Positions 2,203 through 54,300 of a DNA stretch of 64,000 nucleotides are shown here, piece after piece. The DNA lies in assembly GCF_964355755.1 (NCBI RefSeq), contig NC_092677.1:26399175-26463174 (forward strand), given 5' to 3'. This stretch comes from Antedon mediterranea. Its lineage: Eukaryota; Animalia; Echinodermata. Below the pieces are notes generated by a model, which saw nothing but the letters and a program-made list of their open reading frames with translations, had not been told where the DNA came from and did not search any database. Position 1 is the stretch's first letter; the number at the start of each line of letters is the position of its first letter. Both the position numbers and the translations under genes were made by a program.

Positions 2203-2444
2203 GTAATCAGGTATTTTGTTTTATAGCATGGCAGAATGTTAACTAAAATGTCCATCGTCATCAACTGTGAATGAATTATGGTTTAATAATACATTGTTTG
2301 TTTTAATCAATTAAATTAAATGAATTGATATTGTTGTTTCACCATCCTATCGATAAAATATAAAAATATGAAGTATATATAATATCACAACTTGTATACT
2401 ACCATAATCGTTGTACATAAACAATAATTATGGTTTTAAAACAG

Positions 2445-17100: not shown

Positions 17101-19680
17101 CCACCACCGTAGTCAGATGGATCGGATGTCACACGGCGGCGTGCATACCGGACACACTCTTCATGTTTGCCTTTTATAGATAAAATTAATTATCATTTAG
17201 ATAAGAAGATGAATAAAAGTGATTGTTGAAACTTATTAATACGTCTTGGTTAGTTTTAGTTAAATATATATTCCTTTTGGATCTTTTTTCTGGGTCCTAC
17301 CGAGAAAAACGTTTACTTCTTTATATACTTTGTACTCATATGGTTTTTATTTCAATATTAGCTAAATAGTGTTCAAGAAATTAAATAAAATACTACCATA
17401 ATCGACGTACTTATTACATTGTGTTAACACAGGTGATTGATTGTGGGAGTGAGATTACACCTGAAGATGTTTACAGTTTAAAGGCTAAAATAAATTATGC
17501 TGAGTTTGTTCATGCTACTATGAGACTGATCTGCGAGACATCAGTGTGTGTTCTTAGGAATGCAGAGATTCGTATAGCATCTGATCCACCATACTCATTG
17601 TGCGCAGGGAACAGGGATAATAAAATTGCATTGTATAGAGGAGAAGATGGATCAATTAAGACTAAAAAGGAAAGCCACAAGGTAATCAGGGGTTTTGTTT
17701 TATTTAACATTTTAAAGTGTACCGGAATGACAACATAAAACCGTACAACAGGCCCACATTACTTGTAATTATAATACCATAATGATGCATATTGTTTTAA
17801 CACAGGTAGTTGACTGTGGAAGTGAGATTACACTTCAACATCTTCAAAGTTTAAAATCTGAAACAAAGGATGAGGATAAAGATTTGTTTGATGCTACTAA
17901 AAGACTGATCAGCGAGACACCAAAACGGGTTCTTAAAGACGCAGGCATTGTCATATTGACTGATGATTCAACATACTCACTGTATGCAGGGGACAAGAAT
18001 TATGAATTTGTAGTGTTTAGAGACAAAGATGGGTCAATTAAGACTAAAAAGAAGGCAGGAAAAAAGGTAATCAGACTTTAAATTACCGGAATGACAACAT
18101 AAAATCATACTCTTTTATTATAATACCATAAGCAATGTACTTAAAATATATTGTTTTAACACAGGTACAGGTAATTGATTGTGAAAATGAGATTACACTA
18201 GGAGATGTTCAAAGTTTGGAAACAAATGATGATGATGATAAAGATTTTATTCAAGTTACAAAAATGCTGGTCCGCAAGACACCAGCGTGGGCTCGTCAAG
18301 ATGCAGAAATTGTTATAGCATCTGATTCACCATACTCATTGTGTGTAGGGAACAGGGCTAATAAATTCAACGTGTATAGAGAGGACGATGGGTTAATTAA
18401 GATAATAAAGGAGATACCGAAGGTACGTAATCAAGTCTTTTACTATATTTGACGTTAAAGTATTGGAATTTACAACATAAAACACACATTATTTGTATAT
18501 ATAATACACTTTTTTAACACAGGTAGTTGATTGTGGAAGTGAGATTACACTTCAACATGTTCAAAGTATACAATTTGGAATAGATGATGATGATAACGAT
18601 TTTTTAGATGCTACTAAAAGACTGGTCTGCAAGACACCAACGTCGGTTCTTAAAGATGCAGAAATTGAAATAGCCACTAAGGATTCAACATACTCACTGT
18701 ATGCAGGGGACAAGAATAATACATTTGTAGTGTTTAGAGACGAAGATGGACAAATTAAGACCAAAAAGAAGGAAAGAAACCAGGTAACTTAACTTACTTA
18801 ACTTAATGTTTGATGGAAATAGTTTAGGCTAGTACCTATTAGATTCCATTTATAGCCGAAAATAGTCCAGACTTAAAGATGTTCAATGAAGAGGCTTAAA
18901 CCTTTAAGGCTTAAAGGTAATCAGATCTTTTGTTTTATAGGGGGTTTCATGTTAACTAAAAATGTCCATCGTCTATCAACTGGTATGAAAATTAATGGTT
19001 TAATAATACACTGTTTGTTTTACTCAATTAAATTAAATGAATTTATATTGTTGTTTCACCATCGTATCAATAAAATTAATATTACAACTTAATAAAATTG
19101 TATATTTCCATAATCGATGTACATAAAGAAGTATTTTTAAATATGTTGCCTGGACCCCACATTTTAAAGCTTAAGCTTCCAGTGGGGTACCCTTTTTCTC
19201 ATTTATTATCTATTATTTCTAGCAAATGTAACTGTATTTTGTTTTTATTTGAGAAATAAATGTATTGATTTATTGATTGATTGAATTATGGTTTTAACAC
19301 AGGAACCGGTCAAGATTTATTGTGGGACTGAGATTACACTTGTGGATGTTCAACGATTAAACGCTAAAATAAAAGATGAGGAAAAAGATTTAGTTGATGC
19401 TACAAAAAGACTGATTTGCGAGACAGAAAATTGGGTTCTGAAAGATGCAGAAATTGAAATAACGACTAAGGATCATAATATATACAAATTGTATGCAGGG
19501 AACAAGAGTAATGGGTTTGCAGTGTTTAGAGACAAGAATGGGTCAATTAAGACCCAACAAAGGAAACGGAGTTGGTGGAAGTTGCTGTATGACGGGCTTT
19601 GTTGGGTAGAAAGAGATAACACCCCGCTAACACAGCTAATGTTTGGTCCTAGATTAGCTGCTATCCAGTGGCGGCTCTAG
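10662..19680 (+). CDS. Gene B: tandem DED, 2x TRADD-N-like, linker, 5x X-domain, amphipathic tail; putative innate-immune/cell-death adaptor, 909 aa. join(10662..11193,11510..11848,12325..12711,13041..13105,17433..17681,17806..18066,18165..18422,18523..18783,19303..19680)
   Basis: All eight introns are GT-AG with consistent phases (1,1,1,0,0,0,0,0), giving 2730 nt open to TAG at 19680. Domain calls are by motif resemblance. Confidence 0.8.
11510..11848 (+). CDS. Gene B coding exon 2: divergent TRADD-N-like domain
   Basis: Phase 1/1 exon. SLEFFLDTGNKSAWTHLKNIQSNGKLIKGL parallels the strand/helix pattern of exon 3. Confidence 0.6.
12325..12711 (+). CDS. Gene B coding exon 3: TRADD-N-like domain
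   Basis: Phase 1/1 exon. GSLVLYLTAYDSNALDNLWKAYSSETLHKAL...LCVKIDEQDF fits the GS-hydrophobic strand / ALDxLW..Y.S..L / VxIxExD pattern of TRADD-like N domains in invertebrate death-domain proteins. Confidence 0.7.
13041..13105 (+). CDS. Gene B coding exon 4: 65-nt Ser/Lys-rich linker (phase 1 to 0)
   Basis: catttacAG|CTACTTCT...ATTAAG|GTAAGC, encoding (A)TSEKTSKNTVSASEKSESQIK. Identical copy at 25554-25618. Confidence 0.75.
13997..14171. mobile_element. MITE with ~24-bp TIRs
   Basis: TAAAGCTCTGTCTACACTATCAAA ... TTTGATAGTGTAGGCAGAATTTA, internal CATATCACTACCATATTT repeats. Duplicate at 26522-26674. Confidence 0.65.
15390..15900. repeat. ~70-bp minisatellite inside the Academ element
   Basis: About 7-8 copies of CTGCCATCAATATGATGGATTATGATTATAGATTTAAAAAAGAATTTGAACACGTAAGCTACATTTGGAAATTAC. 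Confidence 0.8.
15908..16234 (-). pseudogene. Transposase C-terminal fragment with CXC-like Cys cluster
   Basis: HIKRAHFQALVWKKA..LPSP..YG...CGCKTRCITNRCRCKKSKLPCAALCRC; cut on its 5' side by a HINE-like insertion. Confidence 0.75.
17433..17681 (+). CDS. Gene B X-repeat exon 1 (83 aa)
   Basis: gttaacacAG|GTG ... AAG|GTAATC, phase 0/0. Confidence 0.8.
17806..18066 (+). CDS. Gene B X-repeat exon 2 (87 aa)
   Basis: ttttaacacAG|GTA ... AAG|GTAATC, phase 0/0. Confidence 0.8.
18165..18422 (+). CDS. Gene B X-repeat exon 3 (86 aa; alternative in-frame acceptor 6 nt downstream)
   Basis: ttttaacacAG|GTACAG|GTA ... AAG|GTACGT, phase 0/0. Confidence 0.8.
18523..18783 (+). CDS. Gene B X-repeat exon 4 (87 aa; not in the ORF track)
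   Basis: tttttaacacAG|GTAGTTGATTGT ... CAG|GTAACT. VVDCGSEITLQHVQSIQFGIDDDDNDFLDATKRLVCKTP...DGQIKTKKKERNQ is fully open. Confidence 0.8.
19303..19680 (+). CDS. Gene B terminal exon: X repeat 5 plus amphipathic tail
   Basis: ttttaacacAG|GAACCG; ..RKRSWWKLLYDGLCWVERDNTPLTQLMF..QWRL*. Confidence 0.8.
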   Translation, partial: EPVKIYCGTEITLVDVQRLNAKIKDEEKDLVDATKRLICETENWVLKDAEIEITTKDHNIYKLYAGNKSNGFAVFRDKNGSIKTQQRKRSWWKLLYDGLCWVERDNTPLTQLMFGPRLAAIQWRL

Positions 19681-20585: not shown

Positions 20586-21321
20586 AACAAGGCCATATAG
20601 ATGGCTGCAGTCGCGTGCTTAGTGTTTACCGACCGACCGACCGACCAACCTACCAACTGACCGAAATTACTGAACATGTTTAAAAATGTTGAAATGTTTA
20701 AAAACAGTTATATTTTTTTTAATTTACACGTGCGTAGCCTGTCACTTTTGACGTGCTCGTATAACGTAATTTCGAGTTGAAAAGTAAGTCAAGAAAACAG
20801 AAATCGGGCAAAAAGAGTGCGTTGTAACATTTAACGCGCAGTGCGCGCGCAACAATCTGCGCACTCATGGCAATTTTGTAAACGCTTAAAATTGCCTGAA
20901 ACGTACTCTTATTACATCGAAAATAAATTTTGAAAATTTTAAGCGCGCGTACGCATGCGTTACATGCGCTACGCACGTAATTGTATTGCCATATGATGAT
21001 TTATGCCCTGAAATTTATGAGTACCAAATTTTATTTAATTGTGATTCATGGTTGTGAAGATATGATTACAAACGTGATTTCGTTAAATCGTGCGTAGACC
21101 ACGTAATTTTTTATTGCGCACCGTGAAAACATAACCACATCGATTCCTTGCCATAAGCAATATACTGTGAAAAATTGACCTAGCTAGATTAAACTGATAT
21201 CAAGATAAGGTCAGAAAGCGATAAAACGCATAGTGATACCGGACCGACAGACAGACCGACAGACCGACAGACCGACCGACCGACATAGTGAACTATAGAG
21301 TCGCTTCCACGCGACTAAAAA
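20586..21321 (+). mobile_element. Longer Helentron/HINE-like non-autonomous element
   Basis: Same ends as the short GACA-core element; near-identical inverted copy at ~16230-16943. Confidence 0.65.
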
Positions 21322-21618
21322 TGTATATACAGAAATGAAAGTTATTATCTTTAGTATAAATACCCATTACCAATAGATATAGCATTCATTTTAGATGATA
21401 TTGTTGTAGTCACGTAGTCGTAACGTAGGCTTGGTGTTTAAAATTAATATTAAGATGTGTTATATCTAATTCGTACAATTTTGGTAACTATTTAATTTAT
21501 TTAGTTGTTTTTTTAACTGCTTAATAATATGTCTTATTTATTTTTATTTTCTTTTTTAAAGAAGCAAATTACACCTAATCATTTAACATAATTTTTATAG
21601 TGTTAGTTAAATTTAAAT

Positions 21619-25553: not shown

Positions 25554-28500
25554 CTACTTCTGAAAAAACATCAAAGAACACTGTTTCAGCTTCAGAAAAA
25601 TCAGAAAGCCAAATTAAGGTAAGCATCAAATCAAAGTACACAAATTATAAGAATAAGACTTAGGCCTAAATAAAAGAAATTTCATGTTGGCGGATAATTT
25701 TTAATAAAGTATAAGACGTGGCTAGTTTAGTTACTCTTCAATGGTGACGTTTTTTCCGCGAAGGTTGCATATACCGTACTACCATTATAATGATTACTTT
25801 ATGTTAAGTTCATTCTTTCTGGACGCACCGTTACACCAGAGTACCACTGTCATTTTTCGAATAACGTTTATAATTATTATAGCCATAACTTAATAGGCCT
25901 ACATAAGCTTAATGTGGTTGAATAAATTGTTGCAAAAAATAGCCTGAGTTAATACAGGTATAGTGATTGTCTCCAACGTTGAAAATCCCTAATACGATGA
26001 TAAAGTGCTGTAAGCACTAAAAAGTAGAATTAAAACAATGTTTCATTAAATGATTTACAAATAAAATATGGTATCAAAGTATTCTTTTCGATACTTAACT
26101 ATGAAATTAAAATGCATTTACATACTTTGATTTCGAATTAGGAAATCTAAAGTAAACAAAGTACTGTATGTAGGCACTAAAGTAATGCTAATTAAATACT
26201 GGACGTTATGTAAATTGAACAGGCTACATAATAGTGCACCCCAATCGCCAATGTAAAATTGATTTGATTTATCTGTACCGATAAGATGGTAATTATTCGG
26301 AGAATTCGTAGAATAAAGAACAGTGGGCTACTTCGTTTAAACCCTCACAATTGTGTAGGGACGCTCAGGGCTAGAGTATGTCTAGAATAAAAACGTAGCA
26401 TAATGTTATAGTAATGATCACCTTAAACGAATAATTCGCTGAAAATTATTCCCATTGTAAAAGTAATTACTACGTTCTAAGCTGCAGGTGGCCTCACCGA
26501 TGTACTATTTTGAACACACGCTAAAGCTCTGTCTACACTATCAAAAAAATGTCATGTGCCCATATATGGACATGATGATGTCATATCACCACTATATTTA
26601 AGCATATCACTACCATATTTGGGCATATCACCCTTTTTTTGTCAAAATACTTTTATGGTGTAGACAAAACTTAAGAACATGGAAAGAAACGAATAACCTT
26701 AAATCATCCTATAAATGTTGATTATTAAATGGAAGTGAATTAAAGTAATCCACGACCACGTGGCTTTTCTTTTACTTGAAACGTAACTATCGACCCACCT
26801 CTCTAAACGGTAATGATGCTGTTTACACGGTCAGCTTTTACATTTTACCTATCGGATGTCGCACGGCGGCGTGCATAGCGGACAAACTCTTCGTGTTTGC
26901 CTTTTATAGATAGACAACAGACCCCAAGATTATCTTTCAGATTATCATATATATATATATATATATATAATAGATAAGAAGATGAATAAAAGTGATTGTT
27001 GAAAATTAATACATCTTGGTTAGTTTTAGTTTACCTCAAGGAGGTATATGTAAGCGGTCGCGTGTGTTTGTTTGTTACTTGGCAAAATAAAATTTTGCCA
27101 AGTAGGCCTATAGTGTTTACTTTGTATGTTTGTTTGTTTGGAGACAATTTTCAAAAGCCGGCGAGCAGTCTTAAAGTAACAAGTGTACTGAAATTGCATT
27201 TTCTCGAGAACTACTTGTCCAAAAAACATCATTTTTGTACAAGAGGCAAGAGTTATAAATTGTGATTTGTAATTTTTAAAACATAATTTGATTTATTGTG
27301 CACCTTTGTTGATGCGAGTAGTTCAAAAAACCTATTTCTTTTCAAATTCCCTCGTTTGATTTTCGCGTTGCTGTTCTATTGTCAACTGAAGCTAATTGTT
27401 AATAACCATTACACCAAACTCGCATACACATGCTTGTAGTGAAATTAGCCTAAATCACAAACAGCATTAAGACACACACAAATATATATATGTATATATT
27501 TTCCCGGAGAAATCTTATGTAGGAGAATTTTACAATAGGCGGAGGTATGCATTCTCGGAGTGGCTTTCTAGTTTAATGTACATTCGTTTTGGATCTCTTT
27601 CCTGGGTCCTACAGAGAAAAAGGTTTAACTTCTTTATATACTTTGTACTCATATGGTTTTTATTTCAATATTAGCTAAATAGTGTTCAAGAAATTAAATG
27701 AAATACTACCATAATCGACGTACTTATTACATTGCGGTAATACAGGTGATTGATTGTGGGAGTGAGATTACGCTTGACGATGTTCACAGTTTAAAGGCTA
27801 AAATAAATGATGCTGAGTTTGTTAATGCTACAAAAAGACTGATCTGCGAGACATCACAGTGGGTTCTTAGGAATGCAGAGATTCGCATAGCATCTGATCC
27901 ACCATACTCATTGTGCACAGGGAACAATGCTAATAAATTGTCATTGTATAGAGGGGAAGATGGGTCAATTAAGACTGACAGATCAGGAGACAAGGTAATC
28001 AGAGGTTTTGTTTTATTTACAACTTTTAAGTGTACCGGAATGACAAAATAAAATCATACAGTAGGCCTACATTACTTGTAATTATAATACCATACTGATG
28101 CATATTGTTTTAACACAGACAGTTGACTGTGGAAATGAGATTACACTTCAACATCTTCAAAGTTTAAAACCTGAAACAAAGGATGAGGATAAATATTTGT
28201 TTGATGCTACTAAAAGACTGATCTGCCAGACACCAGAACGGGTTCTTAAAGACGCAGTTATTGTCATATTGACTGATGATTCAACATACTCACTGTATGC
28301 AGGGGACAAGAATTATGAATTTGAAATATGGGTCAATTAAGACTAAAAAGAAGGCAGGAAAAAAGGTTATCAGATGTTTTACTTTATTTATAACGTTAAA
28401 TTACTGGAATGGCTACATAAAACCATACTCTATTATTATACTACCATAATCGATGTACTTAAAGTATGATTGTTTTAACACAGGACGTACAGATGGTTGA

Positions 28501-29277
28501 TTGTAAAAGTGAGATTACACTTGGAGATGTTCAAAGTTTACAATTGGAAACAAATGATGCTGATAAAGATTTTATTCAAGTTACAAAAATGCTGGTCTGC
28601 AAGACACCAACGTGGGTTCTTAAAGATGCAGAAATCCTTATAGCATCTGATCCACCATACTCATTGTGTGCAGGGAACAGGGCTAATAAATTCAAAGTGT
28701 ATAGAGAGGACGATGGGTCAATTAAGATAATAAGGAAGGCGATAACGAAGGTACGTAATTAGGTCTTTTGCTATATTTGACTTTAAATCATTGGAATGAC
28801 AACATAAAACACACATTACTTGTATATAATACTACCATAATGACGTACATTGTTTTAACACAGAAAGTTGACTGTGGAAGTGAGATTACAATTGGAGATG
28901 TTCAAAGTTTGCAATTTGAAACAAGTGATGATGATAAAAATTTCTTAGATGCTACTAAAATACTGATCTACGAGACACCAAGGTGGGTTCTGGAAAATGC
29001 AGAAATTGAAATATCAACTGATGATTCAATATACAAAATGTATGCAGGGGACAAGACTCATGGATATGTAGTGTTTAGAGACAAAGATGGGTCAATTAAG
29101 TCCACCTCACAAAAAAAACGTGGTTGGAGGAATTTGCTATATAATTTATATATAGATGACTCGGATAGTTGGCTCCCGATTGCACCTCTAATGCTTTGTT
29201 CTAAATTAGCTATCGAGGGGCGGAATGTCAGAAGCGCAGCAAGCGATGAAATCAAGGGGGGATCATCCACTAATTGA
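25554..29277 (+). pseudogene. Cassette C: linker exon plus four X exons, join(25554..25618,27746..27994,[28119..28365],28484..28750,28864..29277); no DED/TRADD-N exons; pseudogene or alternative 3' cassette
   Basis: Duplicate of gene B from its exon-3 donor onward (24310 onward matches 12711 onward). The second X exon has a 14-nt deletion (stop at 28340) and a GTTATC donor. The other exons are open with intact splice sites. Confidence 0.7.
27030..27571 (+). mobile_element. Helentron-type non-autonomous element
   Basis: TTACCTC..GGAGG start, GGCGGAGG..CTAG|TT end; absent from the paralogous intron at ~17260. Confidence 0.6.
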
Positions 29278-29717
29278 GTATTTTGCGATGGGCTGGGGGA
29301 TTAATGGACCGCCAAGGGCCCCGGTCGGAGGCTTTGGCGTTCCAGGGCAACCTAGATCATTTGAATCGGTGTACGCGCACAAATATGACAATATTATTGT
29401 TAAGACTAATACACTTTAACAAAAAAACAACTCTCATTTTTATTACAGAACTTTTTATATTCCTACCAAACATACAACCAAATGTATTGATTTTTTTATT
29501 TTTAAATCAGTTTCCGGCTATAGACTTTGACCTGATTCACCCGCGTACCGTACCCCGAACCCGACTACGCGATGTACTATGTTGCTCCAGTGTTCTTGCC
29601 TTGTGTTTGTGATTACGCAATACGGTACTTTGCAACGATATGTCGTTTGTTTAAAAAAAAATGCCATTTTACGATTCGTTGTGACAATTTTTTTTTTTGC
29701 TAAAACAAATAGGGGGC

Positions 29718-31100
29718 AGAACCCCGTGACACAACCGTAGGATTAACGAGAGGGGGTTTCCCCCAAACACTACAAATTTGAGCCACAGCCACCACATTCA
29801 TGGTAAATGGCACCCACCTCCCATCACTATAATCTAGTTGTCCCCGGAAATGACACTCGTACCTTTTCTGCCGACAGTGTTTTGTTTTGATTTGCGTACA
29901 ATGCGTAGTCAGTACTGTTATATATTGTTTAAAAAAGAGGTTAAAAAAAGCCTGATTAGCACACGCCTAAACCCGCGCCTCATGACCACGAAAGTGGCAA
30001 TCGAGTTGCGTAGCACCGACAGGGTTGAGTTTAAAGGGGGTTTAGAAAGGGTTTCTCTATCCCGAACGTAAGACAATTTTGAAGAAAAAAAACACGAAGT
30101 GCTTACAAACTGTTATAGTGCAATCTTAATTGCAAGATAACAGGATTTTTTTCGACGAACTTTGATCAAAACGCTCGAAATGAACATCTGACCCCGCAGT
30201 ATGCACGTGCGGAAAACGTGCGTGGTACTATGTTGTGTCAACTTGAGATATACACTCTACAGCCGGGCGAATAACTCAATGTAAAGAGTGGTTGCAGTGA
30301 TCGCCGTGTCTATAACACATTTCAAAATTGCCGCCATTTTGGACAATTTGTCTTTTCTGTTTATGGCATTAAAAGATGTTATCAAGATAGAAATAAATTC
30401 AATCATAAGTAACAATAAATGTTCAACTAATATTTCACATCATTTGTGTAACAGAACAAGTTTAACGTTAGAAAATGTCGACGCAATATAGTCATTTGTC
30501 TCGTTCCATCGACAAATGCTAAACCCAATGATCCGGTAATTTCTATTGTCATTGGAATAACATCAGTTGAAATAAACACAATATCTAGAAGACTTGCATT
30601 GTAAATGTTATGCTTCATTTAGAATAGAAAGTACACGCACACAATACGTGCGATGGTTGATTTCTTTATAATGTGTATATCGGACATTGTCAATAATACA
30701 GACAGATATTTGTAAAGAATCGTTCACAACCTAGTTACAATATTATTATTTCAATATAGACACATAACTACACGATTTAGGAATGATACGTAATTTATAG
30801 TAATTATTTAATTTGGTCATAAAACCGACTTTGGCTAAAATCTTGCTGCGGAGCCGATATGAACAAAAATATGGTACCGCCTTGTTAATTGTATACAACA
30901 GGGTCGCAATTTATTATTCTAGGGCACCGGAGTTATATTAGAGCGATTGATTACAGTTTCGTTAATAACAAATAAGTTTGATTTTGATTATGATGGTAAC
31001 AGGTAAGTTTAATGATACGTTGATATGAAGTTTGCGGTACACCACGACGTTTATTTTAGAACTATATATACGTGGTGTGCCGCAAACTTTATAACAACAT
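29718..31100 (+). repeat. Segmental duplicate of ~7188-8872
   Basis: Colinear match from ACCCCGTGACACAACCGTAGG to GCCGCAAACTTTATA..AACATAT. Confidence 0.8.
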
Positions 31101-31363
31101 ATGAATTGGTTTCTAAACATTTTTTTGACTTCATGCTATGGTGAAAGAACAAGGTCCGTTAGACAAATTATTAGGTCTAATCAACAATTATTTATAATTA
31201 TTACAATTACTGACATTTTAACAGCTGTTTTCAAGGAATGTAGTTAATGACTCGTGTATTTCTTAGTTAACTAAACACTGAAAGGATTATAAACATGGAT
31301 CTCAGAATTATAGTGACGCAGAACATAATTCAACAGTTAATGTATCTTTTGTATTGGGCCGGT

Positions 31364-33330
31364 TTAAGATATTATACATCTAGATGTATATCTTTCATGT
31401 ATATGGAACTCTCCCTTCGAGTCAACATAACCTGTAACCTCTTTCTGCTGATCTGTTTCTCCAGATGAAATGTGAAATGAAGAATTACCCTGACCGTAAA
31501 GAGATAGTTTTACGTTCTTGTAACTGGTTGCTTTATCAGTCTCTAACTTGGTCATGAACGCTTGTAGTAGTCTTCGTAGTCCAGTCTGTTCTTTCGTTTG
31601 TTGAGCGCCCTCATTTCCACAAAGTTTGAGTATGATATTTGCAAGTGTACGTTTGTTTATTTCATCGACGCAAAACTGAAAGTTTATAACAATAATTAAA
31701 CTGATGAAAACAATTAGTAGTAGTTATGAATCATTTCAATGACAGTGACGTCACAGAACATTTTAGCCACATGGACCTATAATATCCATATATCAGATTG
31801 ATATTACTTTTTTAAATCCAGAAAATGTTCGTTGATAAAAGAGCAAATATAAGAAAGAGAAGTATTGCCTATAGAGGGGGTAAATATTTAGAATCGTTTG
31901 CCTGATCCCAAAAGTGTCAAACTAAAATTGGAAATTTAAAAAAAAAAATACAACAAAAATACTCACTCATGTAGAGTCCACTTATTATTATTTGTTATCA
32001 TTATTGTTATTTGATATTTTAACTTTTTTAATTGTTGTTTTTGCTAATTAGATATAATTTAAAAGGTAAAGTGTTTAAGAGCTTCGGCTCGTTACATAAT
32101 CCATTTTGTAGAAAGAAAAAAATAATTTTCACTGAGTAACATAAAATTACTTTATGTCTCAATTTTGCTTAATATAGACCTTTTCCAAAAGTCTTAAATA
32201 AAAAAAATCCTAAGACCTACCATGACTTCTTCGCGGTGTTTATCATTCAGGTGAACCATTACAGCAAACTTCTTCGCACAGCTGCTATTAAATGTAACTT
32301 GTTCTCCATTCAAGCCACAAAATATTAGCTTTAAGTTAGAAAACCCTTTTTCTCGAAACGAACTTGTGAAATCTTTCCAGTAGGATAGATGATTGGTCCA
32401 ATCTTGAACTGGTAGGTTTAATGTCTCAAAGTCGGGTTCAGAAGGCCTGTCACGTAGGTCAACAGAAGATAAATCTTCAAAAACACGAGATATACATCTG
32501 TGACTTTCTTCATTGGCAAGACAAGAACAATCTGGAAGGTCCACAATCCACTATAAAATACAATGTATATCAATTCAGAGAAACACTGATGAAGGGCTAG
32601 TGCAATTTTTCTCTCCGGCTGTTTCACTTTATCGTTTTGGTTTAGCATATTTTATTTGTATCTCCATTGAGGTTCAAACACATTTTTTCAGTAATATGTC
32701 TTTGAATTTAATTCAGAGAAACACATTTTAATATGTCATATGAAAAATGATCAATGTGATTAAAGTTAACTTTTAGTAGGCTTTGTATTCAACTTAACTA
32801 TTATCAATGTCGTGAAAAATAGTAGGCATAGTAATGTACTTATTAAATAATAAGTTCTTATAAGCCTTTTATATCGGTAAAATATAAGATTTGACAACCC
32901 TTTGAGAACAATATTATGTTCTCGAGAAATATATTTTCCTCAGCTAGCGCTTCGGGAAATATATATTCCCTCGAACAAAATATCATTCTCTCAGGGATGT
33001 CAAAACTTATATTTACCCTCTAAGCAGTCAATATCTGTATAATAATGTACTGTAAAAGAAGTATATTACATTGGTATTTACTCTCCATGTGTTTATCGTC
33101 ACCTTCAACGTATACTCGGCAACAGTAGCTTCACAACAACGGGGAGGCCTACTCCATTCAATGGTACCAACGCTCGTCTTTCCATGACTTTTTGTTGCAA
33201 GAAAATCTGCGCATGCGTTTGCAAATTGACGTTGTGTTTGTATGGCTTCATTATTCGTTTGAACGTTTGTTTGTTGAAATATATCATCTACAACAGATTT
33301 CAGTTTCTTGATACTGAATTCATTCTTTTG
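31364..33330 (-). CDS. Gene D: unknown protein of at least 296 aa ending in a CaaX motif; complement(join(31364..31675,32221..32550,33082..33330)); start exon not resolved
   Basis: Three open exons (249, 330, 312 nt), all phase 0. Acceptors ttttcccAG, ttttatAG, cttttcAG; donors GTAAAT, GTAGGT. Ends ..RYTSRCIIS*. Confidence 0.7.
32876..33017. repeat. ~140-bp imperfect palindromic element in a gene D intron
   Basis: GGTAAAATATAAG.TTTGACA.CCCT...AGGGATGTCAAAACTTATATTTACC around the centre CCTCAGCTAGCGCTTCGGG. Confidence 0.6.
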
Positions 33331-34063
33331 CTGGGAAAAAAGATGAATCGAATTTCATTACGCCTGAATGAAAATTCTATATACATTTTTACATACATCT
33401 TTTTTTTTAATTCGGTAGCATGACTGTTAATTAATTAAAATCATTGATAAAAACTCTTATGTTATAATGTAGAAACTAACACAAATTAGTATGTATTATA
33501 CATACATATTAATAAAACAGAATATCGCCATTTATAGTGAATATATAGTAGACCGTATATCCCCAGCATTTGATTCAGTCTCTGGAAAAACCGCTGACAA
33601 AAATATATAGCCATTATTATTATTGGGCCACCGGTACGTAAATCATGTTTTTTAACTGACCGAAGAAATATGATTATTTTTATAGACTAAATACTTTATT
33701 ATTGTTGAAATAAACATCCTACTACTCAAATCTCAAACTACCTATAAGCTCCATAAATATCTAACAGTAGCGCCTAATAAACAATTCATTTAAAAATGCT
33801 CATCTACCGATTTGGAACAGCAACCACACTAGCTATATATATCACACTGAATGAGTACTGTATTGATATTACCAGTACATGGACGTGACACATGGGCCGT
33901 TCGGACAGATTACCGGCTAAGTTCCGGCCGTTCCTATCCACTAAAGTTAGCCTAATGAAAGTGAGTAAATTATGAATAGGCCTACCATTGATTCGGTGTC
34001 TCCCGTGGAAATCCACCACTGACAAAAATGTGCTGCCATCATCTAGGCCTAGCCAGGTGCTGA

Positions 34064-34240
34064 ACTTACATACAAGAGATACAGTACACTACAATCAGAA
34101 AGAGTTGACTTGTTGAATGAAGTTGTGTGCACCACCAACAATAGGTTGACGTCACTTCATTTACATTTAAAGATTGGAAATTCCAATAAGAATATTTTAG
34201 AAAAGCAAACAGTCGGTTTCCAAGCATTTGGTTGGTAAGT
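34064..34240. promoter_or_regulatory. Putative bidirectional promoter between genes D (-) and E (+)
   Basis: Minus-strand GTAAGT donor at 34069-34064; CRE TGACGTCA 34147-34154; kB-like TGGAAATTCCA 34175-34185; plus-strand GTAAGT donor at 34235. Confidence 0.55.
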
Positions 34241-34627
34241 ATGGTTAATACCCTTGAAATATTTTAGGTTTACTTACCACCACTAAAATTTCACCGTATA
34301 AATATAAATCCTAGCTACTAGCTGCAGAATTTCGTAGTAAAAAAGGTGTCTTTGATGACAACAATTTAATATAACAAAACCTGGAATTACCAAGCCGACG
34401 AGAGAGCTTCGTACTGCTGGAACGATTGGTGTGTAGGCCAAATTACGTGTGCGTGGTTTGTTTCCGACCATCAGAATGGAAGGTGTTTCGTTGCAAAGTG
34501 AAACATGGTAGGCCTTAAAGGTTTTAAGTTTGGTGGAAATTAAAAAGAAAAGCTACTTCTTATTTTTGGTTTAGGTGAAGCCGCATATTTGGTTGGTGTT
34601 CTACATTCTCTATAACATAAACTCAAC

Positions 34628-35297
34628 ATGCCAAAGGAGGTACGGGTAAACATATTTTTGTAGTAAAATTATTGTCCACTATATATTATAATGTTTCGCA
34701 CTCGGTATTCATAACAACTAAAGTACGTAACAATGCTTTTAAAAAGGTTTAAGTTACCAGGGCATTAGGTACACCGGCAGGTTATTTAAGAAAAAAAGAT
34801 AACAGTGATTGTTTTTTTAAATTTGAAGTGAACAAATAAAATATTCATCATTCCAAATCCAAGGGAATATATAAAGGATATAATCGTATTAACAAAAATA
34901 CCATTTAATGTATTCAAATATTGTTTTTACACAGGTTGATATTGATTGTGGAAATGAGATTACCCTTGGAGATGTACAGAGTTTAATCTATAAAATAGAT
35001 GAAAATTTAGTTGATGGTACCAAGAGACTGGTTTGCAAGACAGAAAAGTGGGTTCTTAAAGATGCAAAAATAATTATAGCATCTGAGCCACTATACTCAT
35101 TGTTTGCAGGGGACAAGGCTAATGTATTCACAGTGTATAAAGAAAAAGACGGGTCAATTAAGACTGAAAAAAAGGCGCGTGGTTGGTTGAAATGGTTCTA
35201 TGATGCATGTGTCTGGGTTAAAGATAACGTTTCGATTAGAGAGATACTAAGCATCATACTTTTGTTTTCGTCTAGTAAGAGAGCTATCAAAAATTAA
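34628..35297 (+). CDS. Gene E: stand-alone single X domain plus amphipathic/hydrophobic tail, 124 aa; join(34628..34639,34935..35297)
   Basis: Acceptor at 34574, aacATGCCAAAGGAG|GTACGG micro coding exon, then tttttacacAG|GTTGAT exon open to TAA. AATAAA lies right at the stop. Confidence 0.75.
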
Positions 35298-38200
35298 TAA
35301 AAATAATAATAGAACAAACATCAACATATTTAATAATAAATCAATCATGGTTGTTATTATCGAAATAGGTTATACTTTTTTCAAAATTTCATGCTGAGAT
35401 AGATAAAAATAGTTTAAAAAATCAATGTGCAGGCCTACAATCAATATAACACAGGAAAATAATAATAGGCCTACATTACAAATTTACTCAATTATTTGTA
35501 AATATCATATCTTCACCATTTTTTGTATGGACAGTGTGGCTTGCTATATTTGGATTAAAGTACAATTTGATTACACTAGTTATTAGTTATAATGTATCAC
35601 CATTGATTCATTAATCATTATTGCGTCGCAAGCTCTGATGTTGTTTTCTTAACATGGTGAAAGAGCAAGGTCCATAGTTGAACTAATACTTCAGCTTATA
35701 AGGTGGAATATTATCTGATAACTGTATAGGCCTTTACATAGCCTTTTTAAACAATTTATAACCACCATTTTAGACATTTGCATTGTTTTAGATTGTTTAT
35801 AACATTTTTCCTTCTTTTTAATTGTGAGTCCGAAGTTTTAACTTTCTGTATTGTATGTTGATTATGACCGAATGAATGAATGAATGAATGAATAGTATTT
35901 AAAATGGATATTATATAAAAATGTAGTAACTTTAATAATAATCATTTAATTTCATTAATTAATTTTGTATTCATTCAAAAGAGAAATATCATTTAAAAAA
36001 ATATAAACGTTGATCAAACTGGTTCACTGACTTGTTTTCATTTACTTATAACAGTTGACATCAACGAATACAATAAACGATACATTCATATTTATTAGTT
36101 TATAGGCCACAATGTTGGGTTTTTATACAGATATGTTGTACCCCTAAACAAATTTTGTTTCAAATTTTTTTAATATGCCATTTTAATGTCACGTAATAGT
36201 TATTCACTTTGACCGAAAACTGGATCAAAAAAAAATTTACCTAAAAAAATGTAATTTAAAACAGAAATGCTGTCTGTCAGATTACTCAAACTCAAATGTT
36301 ACAGTAGGTGGAGGTATGCAACCTATTGTTTTGGTACCGAAACAAATTTAATGGGTCACGAAATGTACGTTATTGTTATTATTTATTTAAATAGATATCC
36401 TACTAAGTAGTAGTACACAAAGTACTGTATTATTAATTATTAATTTCATGAACTTCAAAATGCACTATGGTGAAAATAAACATTTAATATCAGGGGCGGT
36501 CGCATGAATATTTTAATGGGGTTGCCTAAAGAGTAGGCCTACAGAGCGGTAGACAGTAGTATTTGAGCCACAGTCCCCATGGTAATACACGAACAATAGA
36601 AATGTCTACATTCAACTGCAAACACAATGTAACAAACCAAAAAATATGTGTGAATGATTAAACTAATGGGACGAAGTTGAAACTAGATACAATATTTAGG
36701 TTGCCAGCAACAAGAGACCTCATATTTTACTCACTGTTTCAACAAACGCAAAGATTGTAACATTTAAGCACAATTAGCTTAGTATAATTGAACAATCTAA
36801 TTATTACAATGGATCAAATATATCATACACATTTATCTCTGATTAGATATGATCATATATCATGATACTACTTGACTGTCATTCAGTCAAGATTTAAAAA
36901 ATGGTTTTAGAACACAATTTCTGATTTCATCGCCGAAGGTTTTCAACCGGGGCCGCGGTAAAAGCAATTTTCAGGTCAGTGTTAATCACTTGCGACTTTC
37001 TGGTTTTGACTAAGTATTTGCTGCCCTCTTTAAGCCTAGGCGGCAACGTTGCCCGTTGGTGGCGATATTAATTACTAAATTTTAATTACTAGCAGTAACC
37101 CGTGCACGTGCTCCGCACGGTCGTTTCCTGCCTTATTATGTGGTTATACTTTGCATGTACAATAAAAGCACACTCCGATAAAAGTACTTTGACAAATTAT
37201 TAAAATAAAAACAAATTGTATCACGAATAAAATTCGGAACTACTGCCATTGACTTGTTATACACTATCTCTTCACTTTAAGAAATATGTAGGCTAAAAAA
37301 TTAAAGCAATAGTGCATATAGAACTATTTACTTTTGACTTTACGAAAACAAAAGACGCTAAAGAAAAATATGGGAGATTTGTTACCTACTTGCTACTTTT
37401 TTAATTAAATTGTGGTCTACTAGTAACCCATGCTCCGCATGGTTTGTCTGCCTTAATAATAATTCGCATGGCATGATTAAGTATATGCGAACTCTTCCCG
37501 GCCCCTGACAAATTATTTTAAAAAAAATTGTCAAGAATGCAATTCAGAACTATTTACGGCCATTGATTTTGTTCAATACTGGATATGGGACTTTGCTTTG
37601 TGAATGATTGATTGCGGAAATGCGATTACACTTAAAGATGCCGTGCGTCTGTGATCTTTGATTTCATAGTATCAACGGTGCAATCTACGACTTCTGTCAT
37701 TTTGGTATAACCTTTCAGAAGCTGACTGATATATAGCGTGCCATAGTCGGGTCTCTCTTATAATATTTTCTGAACGTGTTTCAGAGCGTTTCTAACAGTC
37801 ATCGCAAGTTTCACGCCTAAAAATAAAGAAATGTTTTACTTTATATCAAATCAACAGTATTTTACTTCTTTAAATTATGAAAACAATGAGCGAGCAATAA
37901 TTTTGGTATGACAATTGATGACAACCGTAATACGGAACACAATATAATAATTGAAAGTACTCAGAAACTGAGTGAAGTACTACTACTTGGCAAAATATAT
38001 CAGGGAAAACTATATTCGGAGAGAGAGAGAGAGGGCTCACTACTTGATATTTCAGCCCATCTTAAAATAATACAGAGGGCGTGCTATTTAATATTTCAGA
38101 TCATAATGAAGATACATGTTTTGTAAGTAAGTACCTATTAACACCCTAATATTCAGGACGATAATTAAAAAACTGTGGACGCTATCGTGCGAACAAATAA

Positions 38201-38868: not shown

Positions 38869-40419
38869 TGATGTTTTTGGTCAAAGAATCCATGTTAAGA
38901 ATACAGAGGACATGCCATTTAATATCTCGTATGAAAGATAGATTATAAGTTAAAAGAATGCACTTTTTTCTTTTTATTTGTGAAGTTATTAATCAACTGA
39001 TTTGAATGAACTGAAGTATATACCTATCTACACCGATAAATTATTAATGAATGAATGAATGATAACTTCAAAATTGTAGGCCCTATCGTGCTAACATACA
39101 AACAAAGCAAGTACTAATACTACCTACTATAGTAATGAACAATCCTTCAATGAAACTATGCGGTTTGTCAACAGAGTAGATTTTAAATAACTCCACACGG
39201 TTTAATCGAAATAGATAAGTTTACAATCGATTGGGATTACATTATTTCTGTAACAATTAAATTAAGTTATGGATCAGAAATATTATATTTTGAATAACTA
39301 AAATGCTTAATTAGCAATAAAAAAAAACCTTCGGATAGAAACACATACCGGGTTACATGCTTTAAATATACATAATAAAATAGGACGTGACATCGCCAGC
39401 TCTGATGTTATCTTCTAAACATAGTGAAAGAGCAAGGTTTCACAGTTAAACTAATACTACTGTACAGCTTATAAGTTGAAAGTTGAAGATAATTGATACA
39501 GTTAAATATACAATATACTACCGTATTGGCGTACGCTTTAAAAATGAAATGTTAGTACAGTAGTATCAAAACAAAGCAATTGTTAATGAGAGAGATACGA
39601 CAGGTAGAAGTGATTCAATTTTTAGTAAAATGGTATAATATCTAATAAATAAATAAACCCAGTAGCCTTAACTTTGAAACAAATTATTTTCAAAAAAATC
39701 TAGAATAATTATACAATATCCAAATATAGCTCCTCCGAAAAATAAGTTTACACAAAAACAAAGCCAGTTTTCTTTAAAATATTTAAACATGTGGTGGGCG
39801 AAGTTAATTAACATTTATTTAGATTATGTTCACCTGCTTTACAACTGAACCTTCAGAAATGTTTTCATTCTAAACCTAATATAGTACAGTATAACAGTAT
39901 AATTTTATTTAAATAATTTCCACGAATATGATAATTAATTAAAGCATTCTTATAGTTACTGTATTTAATTGATCAATTAAATTTAATGGATGTCCCACTT
40001 CTAAAAGAAAAAAGAAGTGCTTGTTGAAGTGATATATTCTTTGTAGCCCATGTATATGTATCATAAAACCATAACCTCCAACTTCTTCTCCTTGTCTTTA
40101 TCGTAATTAAGCCATCTTTTTTATAAACTGCAAATGTATTAGTCTTGTCTCCTGAACGCAATGAGTATACTGGATTTGATGCTATTTCAATTTCTGCATC
40201 TTCAAGAGCCTATAGTGGTGTTTCAATAATCAGAAATATAGTATGATCAACAAAATCTGATCCGATTTTAGAGTTTATACTCCGAGCGTCCCCAATCGTA
40301 ATTGCACGTTTGCAATTAATTATCTGAGTTACAACAAAACAAGTAAACTATTAGTATTATAATGGTGGTCTGAAATTATGTGAATATTCAATCATAAATA
40401 GGCCTACAATTTATTACTA

Positions 40420-40883
40420 AAACTTCAACATCACCATCAATGGAGAAACTGTGAAAATGTAGAGATAGCAAAATATTTAGGAAACAAATTGGATATAACA
40501 GAAAGAAAACAAGAATTCAGCAGGAACGTGGGTGCTCTGTATCCTATTCGAAAAAAACAAACATGTACCTAAGAAAACCAATCAAATAATCTTTGATACA
40601 GTCTAGTCCCCTACATTGATGTATGGTACAGAAACATTGGCAATAACAACAAATTGAAGCAGCCCAGCAAAGATGGCTTGGTCATTTGGAAAGAACGGAT
40701 GATAAGAAAGTAGCAAAGAGATATGTTGGAATTGGAAACCATGTGGCAAGAGACCAAGAAAAGGGAATCCTAAATAGAAATAACATGCCCACATTACAAG
40801 AAGTGAGAAGTAGCGGAGAGAAAGAGGCTAGCATCACTGACAGGCGAAAGCCTACCTGAAAGCTGAAGTAAGAAGTAAGTAAG
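40420..40883 (+). mobile_element. RTE-clade LINE 3' fragment in the gene F intron
   Basis: Degenerate ..KYLG..PTLMYGTETLA..QRWLGHLER..WKPCGKRPR.. followed by an (AAGT)n-like tail. Confidence 0.7.
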
Positions 40884-41025
40884 AATTCCATCATAAATAC
40901 AATGTATTACTTGTACAGTTCTACTGATAACAAAGTGCAACCATAATACTAATTAAATAATAAATAAATAATCAAACATAGGAATTAAATAATAAAATAG
41001 TATAATGTAATTAACCCAGTACTAT

Positions 41026-41203
41026 TACTACTACCACTACCACTATTACCACCACCACCAATAAAACCACCTCCACTACCACCACCAATAAAAACCACCT
41101 CCACTACCACCACCAATAAAACCACCTGCACTACCACCACCAATAAAACCACCTCGACTACCACCACCAATAAAACCACCTCCACTACCACCACCAATAA
41201 TAA
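41026..41203. repeat. 27-bp minisatellite (ACCACCACCAATAAAACCACCTCCACT)n
   Basis: About five tandem copies visible directly. Confidence 0.85.
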
Positions 41204-41606
41204 TAAGATGGTGATTACCATATTATAATTAATAGCCCAACATTAGGCTATATTATACGATGACGAAGTTTTTGTTGTTGATGCTTACCTGTGTCATGTT
41301 CAGTCTTCGTTTCCGTAAAAATAATAAAGCACACAGTTTCTTCTAAATGTAGAAAACGGCATGTCAATTATCAAACTTTACAAGATCTCAAGTTCGGCCG
41401 CCGTCAATACTGACGATTGGCTACCATCTGTTCACATCTCACAAGATCTAAACTTTTCAAAACTAACAACTATGCCTACATAATTTTCGCCAGGCGCTAT
41501 AAGGCACTTTCCCCCGATTCATGGATGTAGGCCTACAAACATTTTATAACTTACTGCTACTATACAAACATAGTCACATATTTAACAGATAACAAATATA
41601 ATATAT

Positions 41607-48641: not shown

Positions 48642-50779
48642 ACCACCCGACGAGTCTGCTTATTTCCAGTTTATTGATCAGTATAGTAACGTACTTGTTA
48701 TAACACGTTACATGTCTTAACATTTTGTCCTATACCTTATTTTAAGTAAACATTAATTTGTATTAATGAAAGTCCTACAGTTAAATAAGTGTATATAAGC
48801 CCATGGAGTAATCGATGATTCTTCCGTTAATTCAAATTACATGTAGGCCTACATGAAAAGTGTCGAATGTTCAGTATTATTAAATTAGAGTGAAATGTAA
48901 TTTAATTTCACTGGCATTATTAGTTTTGTGTATACGCATTGTATTTCAGTAATAAACGGCTAGGAAACATTTTTTGTACTGTATGGTAATCATTGATTGG
49001 AATAATATAATTATTTGAATATCTACGCATGTACCACCATTTTCAACACTCTTTTCAATATATTCTAGCAATTATAGTACTTAAGCTATTTATTTTTGGT
49101 AAAATGCATTTTACTGACAGCATAACATTACATAGTTATAATAAGCATTTAGCGTACCAGACGTATGTTATGTTATTTTTTATTTTAATTTGTTTTTTTT
49201 CAATTGATTTAAAACATAGAAAATAAGATTTCAATTGCAACTCTTGCATATTTTACATACGTTTGACAGGTTTTGTGGGTTGAGTTTGTTAATCAGCAGG
49301 TCTCCACGTGTACTAGGCTACTGCTAGTTTAGTATATAAACAAAACTAAAAGGATAAATCAAGAGACAATTTTATAAAATTGATTATATTGTTGATTGCA
49401 ATTAAATGAATGATTTCTTGGTAAATTTCTAGCATCTAGCATTTCGATTTGTAGTAGCGCGTGACTGTGTGGGGGCGCCGTGTGACTAGAATGGTCGATT
49501 GCTACAGACAGTCCGAAATGCGATAACACTGGAGTCCGCCCTCTACCGCCACCAAAACCGTGTGTTTTTGTCGGTTGCGAACTACCTTTCTTTTAGTTAC
49601 CTGTTATGTACTTGTTTGATCTTTCTTTGAAGTTTTGCAATTTCGCTGTGGAAATGCAATTATAGAGCCACCAATATTTTGCAAGGTTTTGGCATAAATC
49701 AGGTGAAAATAGAATTTAGTTGTACCATGAACATTCATTATTTGATTGAATATCACTTTGATCATAAAACAATGCCACGTGATACAATCATATCAGAGAA
49801 GAGTGAAATTGACCGTAAAAAGTACATTTCTTTCTATTCACCGCTACCATTGATTGTCATGGAGAATCTATAAGGGGTTTTTACTAATCTGAATCGACAT
49901 TGTACCAGACAAAATTGACTTCTCTGATTGTACTGTCATTAAAAACTAATTCAATAATAGGCCTTTTTTACAACTGCAGTTTTCGTCCAATATGACAATA
50001 ATGAACGATATTTATGAGAGAATTCATCTGGAGGACGCGGGCATGTAGGTTTCTGAACAAAATTATTCAGTCTAAAGTTGATGTTCCCCTTTATGGGGTA
50101 CTGTAAATAAGGGACTTTTTACCACCTTTAATAAACTGACAGATTATTACGTGCTAATACAGCTATTACCCAAAACGAGGGAAACCAGTAAACACATACT
50201 AGCTAACCTGTCACCCCGTACGTGAGCATATATCGAATACTGTTGACTAATGAGATATAATTTACAAAAGGTAGACGTGACCAAGGTGTCTTGGGGAAAA
50301 ATTATCTAAAAATTGATATTATTAATTGTTATTTTCTACTAGATGTCATTCACTATGGCATGCAATTAGTATAAAACACGAATCAATAATAACAGCCGTG
50401 AGAAATTGGGTATTGCGACACTTATAATCTTACACATTAAATAATGTGTAAGATTATTAAGACATTCTATAATTAGTAAGTCAATGTTTCGGTCATGTAA
50501 TTATTTGTTTTTTGATATTTTATAATTTACATGCCTATATCTCGTGACAAAAAATTCTTAAATTATGACAACAGTGATCTGTAGGCGTAAAAAGGCAATG
50601 ACCGTGTAATTAAAAATATCTCATCAATTTCTAGAAACAGATACCGTAGAGATCGTGGACGTGAAAAAGAACGTTAAACAAAATGACGATGGACAAAATA
50701 GACCAAAATATAGAAATTTAGATTGAAGAAAGAAAAATACCGTGGCACTTGGTCAGCAATGACTTGGTCAGCAATGCTA

Positions 50780-51330
50780 AATGTCTATAAAGCTTTGATT
50801 TTACCAGTTATTACATATTCCAAGTGAAAATTGTAATATTGGTAGACTTGAGAATATTCAGAAAAAGGCTACAGGTCTGTATTTATTTTATATCAAAAAG
50901 AAAGGAATTGGATATATATTAAAGACCTTACATATTTTACGTATAGAAAATATCTTTATAGACTAAACCAAGTGAAAGGTGTGGAGGACGATTGTAACTG
51001 GAAGGCAAAAACCAACACTTTTCTAAACTCCTCTTTTGTAATTTTTCCTAGTCTATGGGAAAATGTTCCACAGGATATTAAAAAATGCACTTCGGTTACC
51101 AACTTTAAAGCTCAAATTATTGATCACCTGATTTCATTATACTAACTTTGACAATTATTATGACTTTTTAGTTTTAATTTTCATTACAATTTTTTTGTAT
51201 ATTTACTTAATGTATTGTGTTTAAGTCATTTTAATTAATCTGTTAAATTCGTTTTTAAATAATTGCTGTGTTGACGTTGGAGCAAACAGTAAATTCTGTT
51301 CAGGCCTGCTGTATGCCTATTAAATATTAT
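50780..51330 (+). mobile_element. CR1/L2-like LINE 3' remnant (also ~54000-54540, ~57930-58450)
   Basis: YKALILPVITYS..IGRLENIQKKAT.. RT C-terminal pattern followed by a T-rich 3' UTR. Confidence 0.55.
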
Positions 51331-54300
51331 ATCAATATAATATTGAGTGACATGCCCTGCTGTATTTTTAAAGTTTGTTAGGTAATATGGTTGTCAAAGT
51401 GACCTCTAAATTCTGTCAGATTATATGTGATGTGGGCATAAAAGGCAATGATCGTGCACATAATCTTACGCATTCAATACTGCCTAAGATTATATTAAGT
51501 ACCACAAGATATTTTCCTTTGAAACCAAACGATCACTATTTATTTCTAGATTATTAGGTAAATATTTTTTGAAATTTTATTATCTATAGGCCTTTCTCGT
51601 GACAAACATCTTAAATTATGACAACAGTGATCTGTGGGTGAAAGGTAATGACCGTGGACGATCACTATCTATTATTACTAGAAATATATAGGGATCGGTG
51701 GACATAAAAATATAAACCGTGCACTACAATTCCACGGGTAAATTTTTTCTATTTGACATGTTGAAAGAAGAAATCAAGAGTTAGGCCTATAATAAAAAGT
51801 GTTTAAAGTTAATCACAATAACGATGAAAAAAACAGACCTTAAAGAAATTATTGGAGAAAGTGTAAGATCATTCAAGTATCCGGTTTACCAGTTTTACCT
51901 CCACCAACCTCTATGTATTTCTAGAAATATTAAGTCAATTTGCTAAGGTGTTCTTTCTCATTTTGTACTTTTCTTACGCTAAAATGAAAATTAATTTGTC
52001 CAATTAATGTCGAGGTTCTACTAATAAAGGTTATAACAATGATAACTACATATTCATAAATAATGCAAATAAAAATAAAATCGGCTACATAGGCCTAAAA
52101 AATGTTAATAAAACCATCATTAATTAGCAGTCTGAACTACTGCCTCATCAATGAGGTCCATATTAGTTACCATTATGGATGATTTAAATTATTCAATTTA
52201 TATCCTCGTGTTTTGTATGTATGTTTTACATTACATCGCTGGAATTTTATATAATAATCTTTATTGTCTTTCTTTCTTGTTTGTTCTTTTTCACATACAT
52301 AAAATCAAAACTAAAGACAAAAGACCAAAAAAAAAAAGCTTTCGCTTATCGAGTTTTGGTCTTTTAAAATAAGTAAAACCTAAACTAGAACGTATATCAT
52401 TTCTGAGAAAGAAAAATCTGAAGAAAATTAATTACATAAATGAAAATTAATAACTCACTGGCATTATCAATATGAATATGAAATAAGTAATAGAAGAGTA
52501 TTATACACATTTTTTGTTTGTTTTTTAAATAGAAAAAACTAGAAACCTACTCGTCGTAAGCATAGCAACTTTGCTTTGCATGGGAGTCAATTATGCTTTT
52601 TTCAAAATGGTGAGTGTGATACTTTAGAAACTTTGCTGTGCAGTTTGAATGTTGTTATCAAATTAAAATAGTTGTACGGCACGGGATATAGGAGAACATC
52701 AAAACAATAATAGTTTGTCACATACCATGATTTTTAAAGTAGGAAGACGACTGTACCATTTCGATGAAAAGTTCTGTAGTAGGCCAAACAGTAACTAACA
52801 GTAGCTACACAAATGAAGTTTTGCAATTTCGCGGTGGAAATGCAATTATAGAGCCACCAATATTTTGCATGGTTTTGGCATAAATCAGGTGAAAATAGAA
52901 TTTATTTCTACCATGAACATTCATTACTTGATTGAATATCACTTAGATCATAAAACAATGCCACGTGATACAATCATATCAGGAAAGAGTGAAATTGACC
53001 GTAAAAAGTAAATTTCTTTCTATTCACCGCTACCATTGATTGAATCTATAAGGAGTTTTTACTAATCTGAATCGACATTGTACCAGACAAAATTGACTTC
53101 TCTGATTGTACTGTCATTAAAAACTAAATCAACAATAGGCCTTTTTTCAAAATTGTATGAATTTAAGTTTTACAACTGCAGTTTTCGTCCAATATGACAA
53201 TAATGAACGATATTTATGAGAGAATTCATCTGGAGGACGCGGGCATGTAGGTTTCTGAACAAAATTATTAAGTCTAAATTTGATGTTGCCCTTTTATGGG
53301 GTACTGTAAATAAGGGACTTGATACCGTCTTTAATAAACTGACAGATTATTACGTGCTATACAGTTATTACCCAAAACGAGGTAAACCAGTAAACACATA
53401 CCGGTACTAGCTAACCTGTCACCTTGTACGTGTGCATATCGAGTACTGTTGACTAATGAGATATAATTTACAAAAGGTAGACGTGACCAAGTCTTGGGGA
53501 AAAATTATCTAAAAATTGCTATTATTAATTGTTATTATCTACTAGATGTCATTCACTATGACATGCAATTGATGACAGCCGTGAGAAATTGGGTATTGCG
53601 ACACTTATAATCTTACACATTAAACAATGTGCAAGATTATTAAGACATTTGCTTTTTAAGCCAACCGACCACTGTTTATTTCTATCTATTCTATAATTAG
53701 TAGGTCAATGTTTCGGTCATGTAATTATTAGTTTTTTGATATTGTATAATTTATATGCCTATATCTCGTGACAAAAATCTCAAATTATGACAGTGATCTG
53801 TAGGCGTAAAAAGGCAATGACCGTGTACTTAAAAATATCTCATCAATTTCTAGAAACAGATACCGTAGAGATCGTGGACGTGAAAAAGAACGTTAAACAA
53901 AATGACGATGGACAAAATAGACCAAAATATAGAAATTTAGATTGAAGAAAGAAAAATACCGTGGCACTTGGTCAGCAATGACTTGGTCAGCAATGCTAAA
54001 TGTCTATAAAGCTTTGATTTCACCAGTTATTACATATTCCAAATGAAAATTGTAATATTGGTAGACTTTAGAATATTCAGAAAAAGGCTACAGGATTTGT
54101 ATTTATTTTATATAAAAAAGAAAGGAATTGAATATATATTAAAGAACTTACATATTTTAAGTATAGAAAATATCTTTATAGACTAAACCAAGTGAAAGGT
54201 GTGGAGGAAGATTGTAACTGGAAAGCAAAAACCAACACTTTTCTAAACTCCTCTTTTGTAATTTTTCCTAGTCTATGGGAAAATTTTCCACAGGATATTA

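Follow-up and report, generated by a model that had tools for sequence, protein, structure and literature searches.

A predicted solo gene of a repeated domain family in the crinoid Antedon mediterranea

A stretch of 64,000 nucleotides of the Antedon mediterranea genome (contig NC_092677.1, positions 26,399,175 to 26,463,174; hereafter the window) carries a predicted gene, here termed E, whose product of 124 amino acids consists of a single copy of a domain of ~85 amino acids, X, and a C-terminal tail. We read gene E, at a probability of about 0.48, as a single-domain member of a family of X-plus-tail proteins, likely a small module of interaction or effector type, non-enzymatic and membrane-associated, in innate immunity or stress response. 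The cluster around it is best read, by analogy, as a set of immune genes with fast turnover that fits the pattern of a death-fold/TRADD-N region plus a variable domain, with a variable domain that is undescribed.

Gene E and the X family

The frame of gene E is open through two exons and has 0 internal stops. Exon 1 (34628-34639, forward strand) is a micro-exon of four codons (12 nucleotides) with its ATG at 34628; it is followed by a GT-AG intron of phase 0 (34640-34934, forward strand) and by the phase-0 exon 2 (34935-35297, forward strand), which encodes X (~85 amino acids), an amphipathic/hydrophobic tail of ~35 amino acids and the stop. An earlier note on this DNA had proposed just such a design, a micro-exon plus one X exon with a tail, and the open frame and the GT-AG intron bear it out. 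A candidate poly(A) signal of E, AATAAA, lies at 35335-35340 (forward strand), a motif that AT-rich DNA often contains by chance. A further in-frame ATG, at 34908, gives an alternative, single-exon reading of 129 amino acids; it is judged the poorer and less likely model, because the splice acceptor is common to all copies and because the micro-exon start (its first three residues) matches that of the Antedon protein P0001.

The earlier note had also asked whether further coding exons lie upstream of E. An in-frame TAA at 34613 stands five codons 5' of the ATG, and a strict scan of 29300-34627 found 0 open phase-0 coding exons of at least 60 nucleotides; the same scan gave 0, 1, 0 and 0 in four control regions, so that it is rarely positive, and short or weak exons would escape it. 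With a stop preceding its ATG, the E protein is made of X and the tail only, lacking a death-like or TRADD-N domain, and 0 Pfam families were found in it at an E-value of 1 or less. A strong GTAAGT donor at 34235 and an acceptor-like site at 34575, both upstream of the ATG, could bound a non-coding first exon; a low-depth contig of the presumed RNA run X1 at 34253-34419, between these two sites, is inconsistent with that splice. Two patterns tried, ISRE-like and kappa-B-like, were absent from the 1 kb upstream of E and of pseudogene F.

The family was sought with a profile made from ten sibling copies, without E, among 1.84 billion representative proteins, a collection in which relatives more than 50% identical are merged. 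The profile matched 18 proteins, 14 of them credible. P0004, P0005, P0006 and P0017 were dropped as repeat-rich false positives, with only 26-64 profile positions matched and unrelated domains or names. Eight of the 14 credible matches are solo X-plus-tail proteins: five from Anneissia japonica (XP_033107134, XP_033125084, XP_033110552, XP_033112281 and XP_033125101; 132-141 amino acids) and three unnamed records. This supports the view, put forward in the earlier note, that X with its tail forms a unit in itself, and, judged from sequence, the solo form is a real and old architecture. Like E, the Anneissia proteins have a short head, one X and a tail, and exon 2 of E is 28-36% identical to four of them over ~85-115 residues. 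They differ in being computer annotations, as the Antedon records also are, to which no function is attached, and the one-to-one orthologue of E is not established among them; the queries for searches and models were the sibling copies and one Anneissia protein, with which a closer orthologue of E may be missed.

The other credible matches are mostly tandem. Hemichordates have arrays of two X in Saccoglossus, five in Glandiceps and six in Ptychodera, and Antedon P0001, the closest named relative, has three X and no DED. P0001, P0011 and P0013 are X arrays without any death-fold domain. Branchiostoma floridae P0009 (C3YAM2 / XP_002606760) has the order CARD-X-X-tail, its CARD being matched at an E-value of 2e-15, and a further match is an unnamed protein of 256 amino acids. 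In the two-repeat Saccoglossus protein, P0018, the unassigned residues 1-76 before X possibly represent a third kind of adaptor fusion. A profile built from the 27 outside domains only detects E at 2.5e-21, while the best of 578 reversed open reading frames (ORFs) reaches 0.47; the likeness exceeds chance.

X matched no Pfam family, in the window or in the outside proteins, and no PDB sequence. Models of X had no Foldseek match at an E-value of 0.001 in the PDB or among viral models, and their Atlas matches were all below 0.9, with TM below 0.5. Word-index searches gave 1 match in 1506 candidates and 0 in 7993 and 0 in 7985 longer ones; these blanks are weak, as P0011 and P0013, in both length ranges, were missed. 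A literature search found nothing on X, an unnamed domain being hard to search for, and four family accessions were absent from the 12 of 13 supplementary files of PMC8195603 that were searched. Within the searches made, the domain family, found in crinoids, hemichordates and lancelets, appears new, while its pattern of deployment is of a known kind.

Other X copies and the history of the cluster

The window is AT-rich animal DNA (GC content 0.30-0.37) with 13 copies of X; a tblastn search with exon 2 of E returned the 12 others at E-values of 1e-15 to 1e-29. The internal copies, 249-261 nucleotides long, are symmetric exons of phase 0, and the terminal ones carry the extra tail. Predicted gene B (10662-19680, forward strand) has nine exons with an open frame of 907 amino acids, GT-AG sites and compatible phases. 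Its exons are, in order, a DED-like exon, an unassigned one, a TRADD-N-like one, a 65-nucleotide linker, four internal X and a terminal X with tail, and the linker shifts phase 1 to phase 0 ahead of the five X exons. The DED-like exon matches Pfam DED at an E-value of 5.9e-5 (23.7 bits, below the cut-off of 35.9) and the TRADD-N-like exon matches Pfam TRADD-like_N at 0.054 (13.8 bits, below the cut-off of 23.7), and the fusion of DED/TRADD-N to X in B is put forward as a phase-compatible gene model. The second exon of B (11510-11848, forward strand; 113 amino acids) has no Pfam match and may be a diverged second TRADD-N-like domain.

Array C (25554-29277, forward strand) comprises a copy of the linker exon of B and four X exons, at 27746, 28119 (frameshifted), 28493 and 28864; no copy of the first three exons of B was found in it. 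Array A (1942-2825, forward strand) holds the two final X exons of a gene, and the window yielded no 5' part for it. No strong micro-exon start of the E type was found ahead of B1, C1 or A1, the first X exons of the three arrays. Pseudogene F (39973-41297, reverse strand), by contrast, has the two-exon design of E, with a three-codon micro-exon (41297-41289), a GT-AG intron and an X-plus-tail exon (40323-39973); its 119 codons are interrupted by a TAG at 40212-40210 (codon 41), in agreement with what the earlier note had described. A relic of an X-exon start, 15 codons long, lies at 37607-37651 on the forward strand (tblastn E-value 0.2; 34 nucleotides at 85%, E-value 3e-4). Local turnover thus amounts to one stop, one frameshift and one relic beside the 13 copies. 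The last ~40 nucleotides of the E intron resemble the intron ends that precede array exons, and because these ends are alike before E and the array exons, the sequences point to a spread of X by DNA-level exon duplication.

Gene E shares 44-59% identity with each of the 11 array copies and joins no particular window copy in the tree, so that the suggestion that E is a possible ancestor is not borne out. Window, Antedon and Anneissia copies cluster together with weak support (84/80). XP_033107134 groups with the terminal copies of A and B (98/97), and the repeats of P0001 pair in order with B1/C1, B2/C2 and B3/C3. The lancelet P0009 repeats group, weakly, with the unnamed solo proteins P0010 and P0016 (bootstrap 83) and not with crinoid copies. 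Seven changes of the solo/multi label are needed on the tree, at least two of them forced by supported branches, against a shuffled mean of 9.1; this distribution would fit lineages that changed repeatedly between the solo and the array form. Because the tree (40 rows) is midpoint-rooted and has long hemichordate branches, it gives no order of events. Two separate captures of X behind death-fold domains are likely on these sequences. The claim of a fusion behind a death-fold adaptor thus gains an independent case in the lancelet CARD-X-X-tail protein; the DED/TRADD-N arrangement itself stands as a gene model in B, and it is not seen in P0001.

Gene D (31364-33288, reverse strand) has at least three open exons, ~275 amino acids and a CaaX-like C-terminus. 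Its last exon is the top non-family match of the outside X profile (E-value 0.076 among 578 ORFs; reversed control 0.47), and its comparison with X by hhalign gives a probability of 0.6%; from its sequence, D may be a very diverged, prenylated relative of X. One contig of run X1 skips 31669-32221, which is intron 2 of the D model, a joint absent from run X2. Contigs of run X1 over 31545-33101, which derive from D paralogs and have a depth of 71-91, skip the introns of D, which suggests that D belongs to an expressed family with several copies at other genomic sites. An ORF at 63622-63891 (reverse strand) contains, by eye, a stretch like the end of the last exon of D and is probably a paralog fragment. 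At 49628-61763 lie three to four degenerate tandem copies of an AT-rich unit of ~3.2-3.9 kb with no long ORF. Nested repeats in the fourth intron of B, at 14391-17064 and 20690-21323, include a 583-nucleotide inverted copy and are likely transposon debris; among those in the intron is a CXC-like, cysteine-rich ORF (15908-16333; Pfam TCR, E-value 0.11).

Function, known systems and alternatives

No catalytic-type residue is invariant in the 27 outside domains, the best kept being G (25/27), C (22/27) and N (22/27). The tails are amphipathic, basic and tryptophan-rich; that of E has a net charge of +4 and a hydrophobic moment of 0.45, and 11 of 13 other tails have moments of 0.40-0.68, values that carry no shuffle control. 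X is therefore probably, on these sequence features, a non-enzymatic binding module that would be held at a membrane by the tail when terminal, this chemistry of the tail being the sole basis for the membrane role. In the history that we favour, the symmetric phase-0 X exon would have been copied together with its flanking intron to give tandem arrays, some of which would have been captured behind death-fold adaptors, DED/TRADD-N or CARD. In such fusions, to judge from the behaviour of death-fold domains, oligomerisation of the DED or CARD would cluster X and the tail on activation, a role that solo E would fill with no adaptor.

Several observations weigh against this proposal. None of the X proteins has a known function, and a death-fold domain is absent from 13 of the 14 outside members. 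The immune link consists of one curated CARD match and the sub-threshold DED and TRADD-N matches. The tails of F (0.24) and P0012 (0.26) have weak moments, and a tail-only profile was not significant for gene E (E-value 0.73). By a simple counting method, the pooled ratio of nonsynonymous to synonymous substitution rates (dN/dS) of E against the 11 array copies is 0.67, with a confidence interval (0.41-1.10) that includes neutrality. In favour of the proposal are counted the ratio of 1.30 for matched B and C repeats and the contigs of run X1, which cover 34981-35746 with 2-3 differences; this cover may be background, because contigs of similar depth (3-4.5) lie on the non-coding 29974-30372 and 34253-34419. 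The same run has no cover at 34488-34859, which includes the micro-exon of E, and no joint across the E intron, a gap that is not proof of absence. A 1387-nucleotide contig of run X1, laid on 34942-35176, has two X copies ~258 nucleotides apart, 85% like E; it matches no window copy, sharing at most 10 of 17 differences, and its joint also occurs in the DNA-like runs, so that the contig may represent either spliced RNA or an array elsewhere that lacks introns.

The pattern proposed for the cluster has close parallels. In invertebrates, constant DED+TRADD-N regions are described as joined to variable modules that elsewhere exist by themselves (Kaur et al. 2021, PMC8195603); according to the consulted part of that article, the N-terminal death-like domain is usually a DED, and retrotransposition is proposed for the expansions. 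The model of B resembles the expansions of the DEDD2/NCOA6 clade in its DED-like and TRADD-N-like exons ahead of a variable C-terminal part that has solo forms too, in its marine deuterostome host and in the repeats nearby. It differs in that the consulted part of PMC8195603 does not name X as a partner domain and that E itself has neither DED nor TRADD-N; against the proposed retrotransposition, the exon of E moved with its intron end, which would therefore indicate DNA duplication. Domain shuffling is described for lancelets in the part of PMC2575513 consulted. Lancelet P0009 shares with B a death-fold domain, a linker, tandem X and a tryptophan-rich tail, but has a CARD instead of a DED, two repeats and no TRADD-N.

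Decay offers a simpler account of E, in which the gene is a stray copy of a terminal array exon drifting as F has done, and its solo state carries no separate function. The neutral dN/dS interval, the stop in F, the frameshift in C2, the relic at 37607 and the likeness of the E intron end to those of internal array exons all suit it, as does an outside-window contig with tandem X that is closer to E (21 differences in 142 nucleotides) than are the window copies (at least 26). Yet the 120 codons are open: in a neutral simulation without indels the exon stayed free of stops in 46%, 23%, 11% and 5% of cases at 0.05, 0.10, 0.17 and 0.25 changes per site. The micro-exon start shared with P0001 and the persistence of solo genes in Anneissia also speak against decay. 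Three of the five sequencing runs that contain this region were aligned to it. In two DNA-like runs of one sample the E locus lies on one contig with 2-3 differences, and the one variant listed in the tail is a conservative R to K. Decay is accordingly thought fairly unlikely.

The best whole-core structural match of the X models was REDD1/DDIT4 (RTP801_C, PDB 3lq9), with two helices and a four-stranded sheet and 78-82 residues aligned. Neither RTP801_C nor a 3lq9 chain was among the Pfam-scan or PDB profile matches of X, from which weak matches were filtered out. REDD1 (PMC10545776, PMC4183088) is a two-layer alpha/beta sandwich with two helices and four strands; it is induced by stress and inhibits mTORC1. 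In the consulted part of PMC4183088, REDD1 is characterised by a Psi-loop and a conserved EPCG/KKK surface patch. Should this weak likeness between X and REDD1 prove real, a related family would join a fold whose topology has been called unique. It would be fairly unlikely, on such models, that X is a highly diverged REDD1/RTP801-fold branch turned mobile immune module with a membrane-active tail, deployed solo, in arrays and in independent DED/TRADD-N (crinoid) and CARD (lancelet) fusions; if true, death-fold signalling would be tied directly to a REDD1-like output. That X is a remote branch of this fold and E a stress-induced regulator sequestering a partner as REDD1 does, with this activity placed under death-fold control in the fusions, is rather unlikely.

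CARD-only and pyrin-only proteins offer an analogue for another role of E, that of a homotypic partner or dominant-negative of B, which would bind the X repeats of B without DED/TRADD-N. The two genes lie in the same cluster, a tail closes both proteins and E is without the adaptor part, but B is not nearer to E than the other copies are, and known short dominant-negatives retain the death-fold domain and not the cargo. The Anneissia solo forms, moreover, have no fused X protein among the matches, a weak point since relatives more than 50% identical were merged. This role is improbable.

In plant NLR integrated decoys, one domain occurs by itself as well as joined to a death-signalling scaffold, a likeness to X. 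A reading of X as a pathogen effector target, with E the guarded protein or decoy and B carrying integrated decoy copies, draws on this coexistence and on the divergence of B/C repeats at a dN/dS near or above 1 (1.30 for four matched repeats, confidence interval 0.86-2.17, not different from 1), but the guard or decoy logic of the earlier note found no support and is very doubtful: a scan of 10 window ORFs, among them the three large head exons of B, gave no NLR- or LRR-type sensor domain (NACHT, NB-ARC, LRR), no pathogen target or effector is known for X, X is repeated up to six times, arrays without a death-fold exist (P0001, P0011, P0013), the outside family is small (14 credible members) with no named conserved protein for X to mimic, and a tested effector interaction, which defines integrated-decoy logic, is absent.

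As a member of the X-plus-tail family, the solo gene E of 124 amino acids is the simplest object for determining the structure of X and finding its partners. The X family likely joined death-fold adaptors twice, which makes it a candidate for a new effector or adaptor in the immunity of invertebrates.
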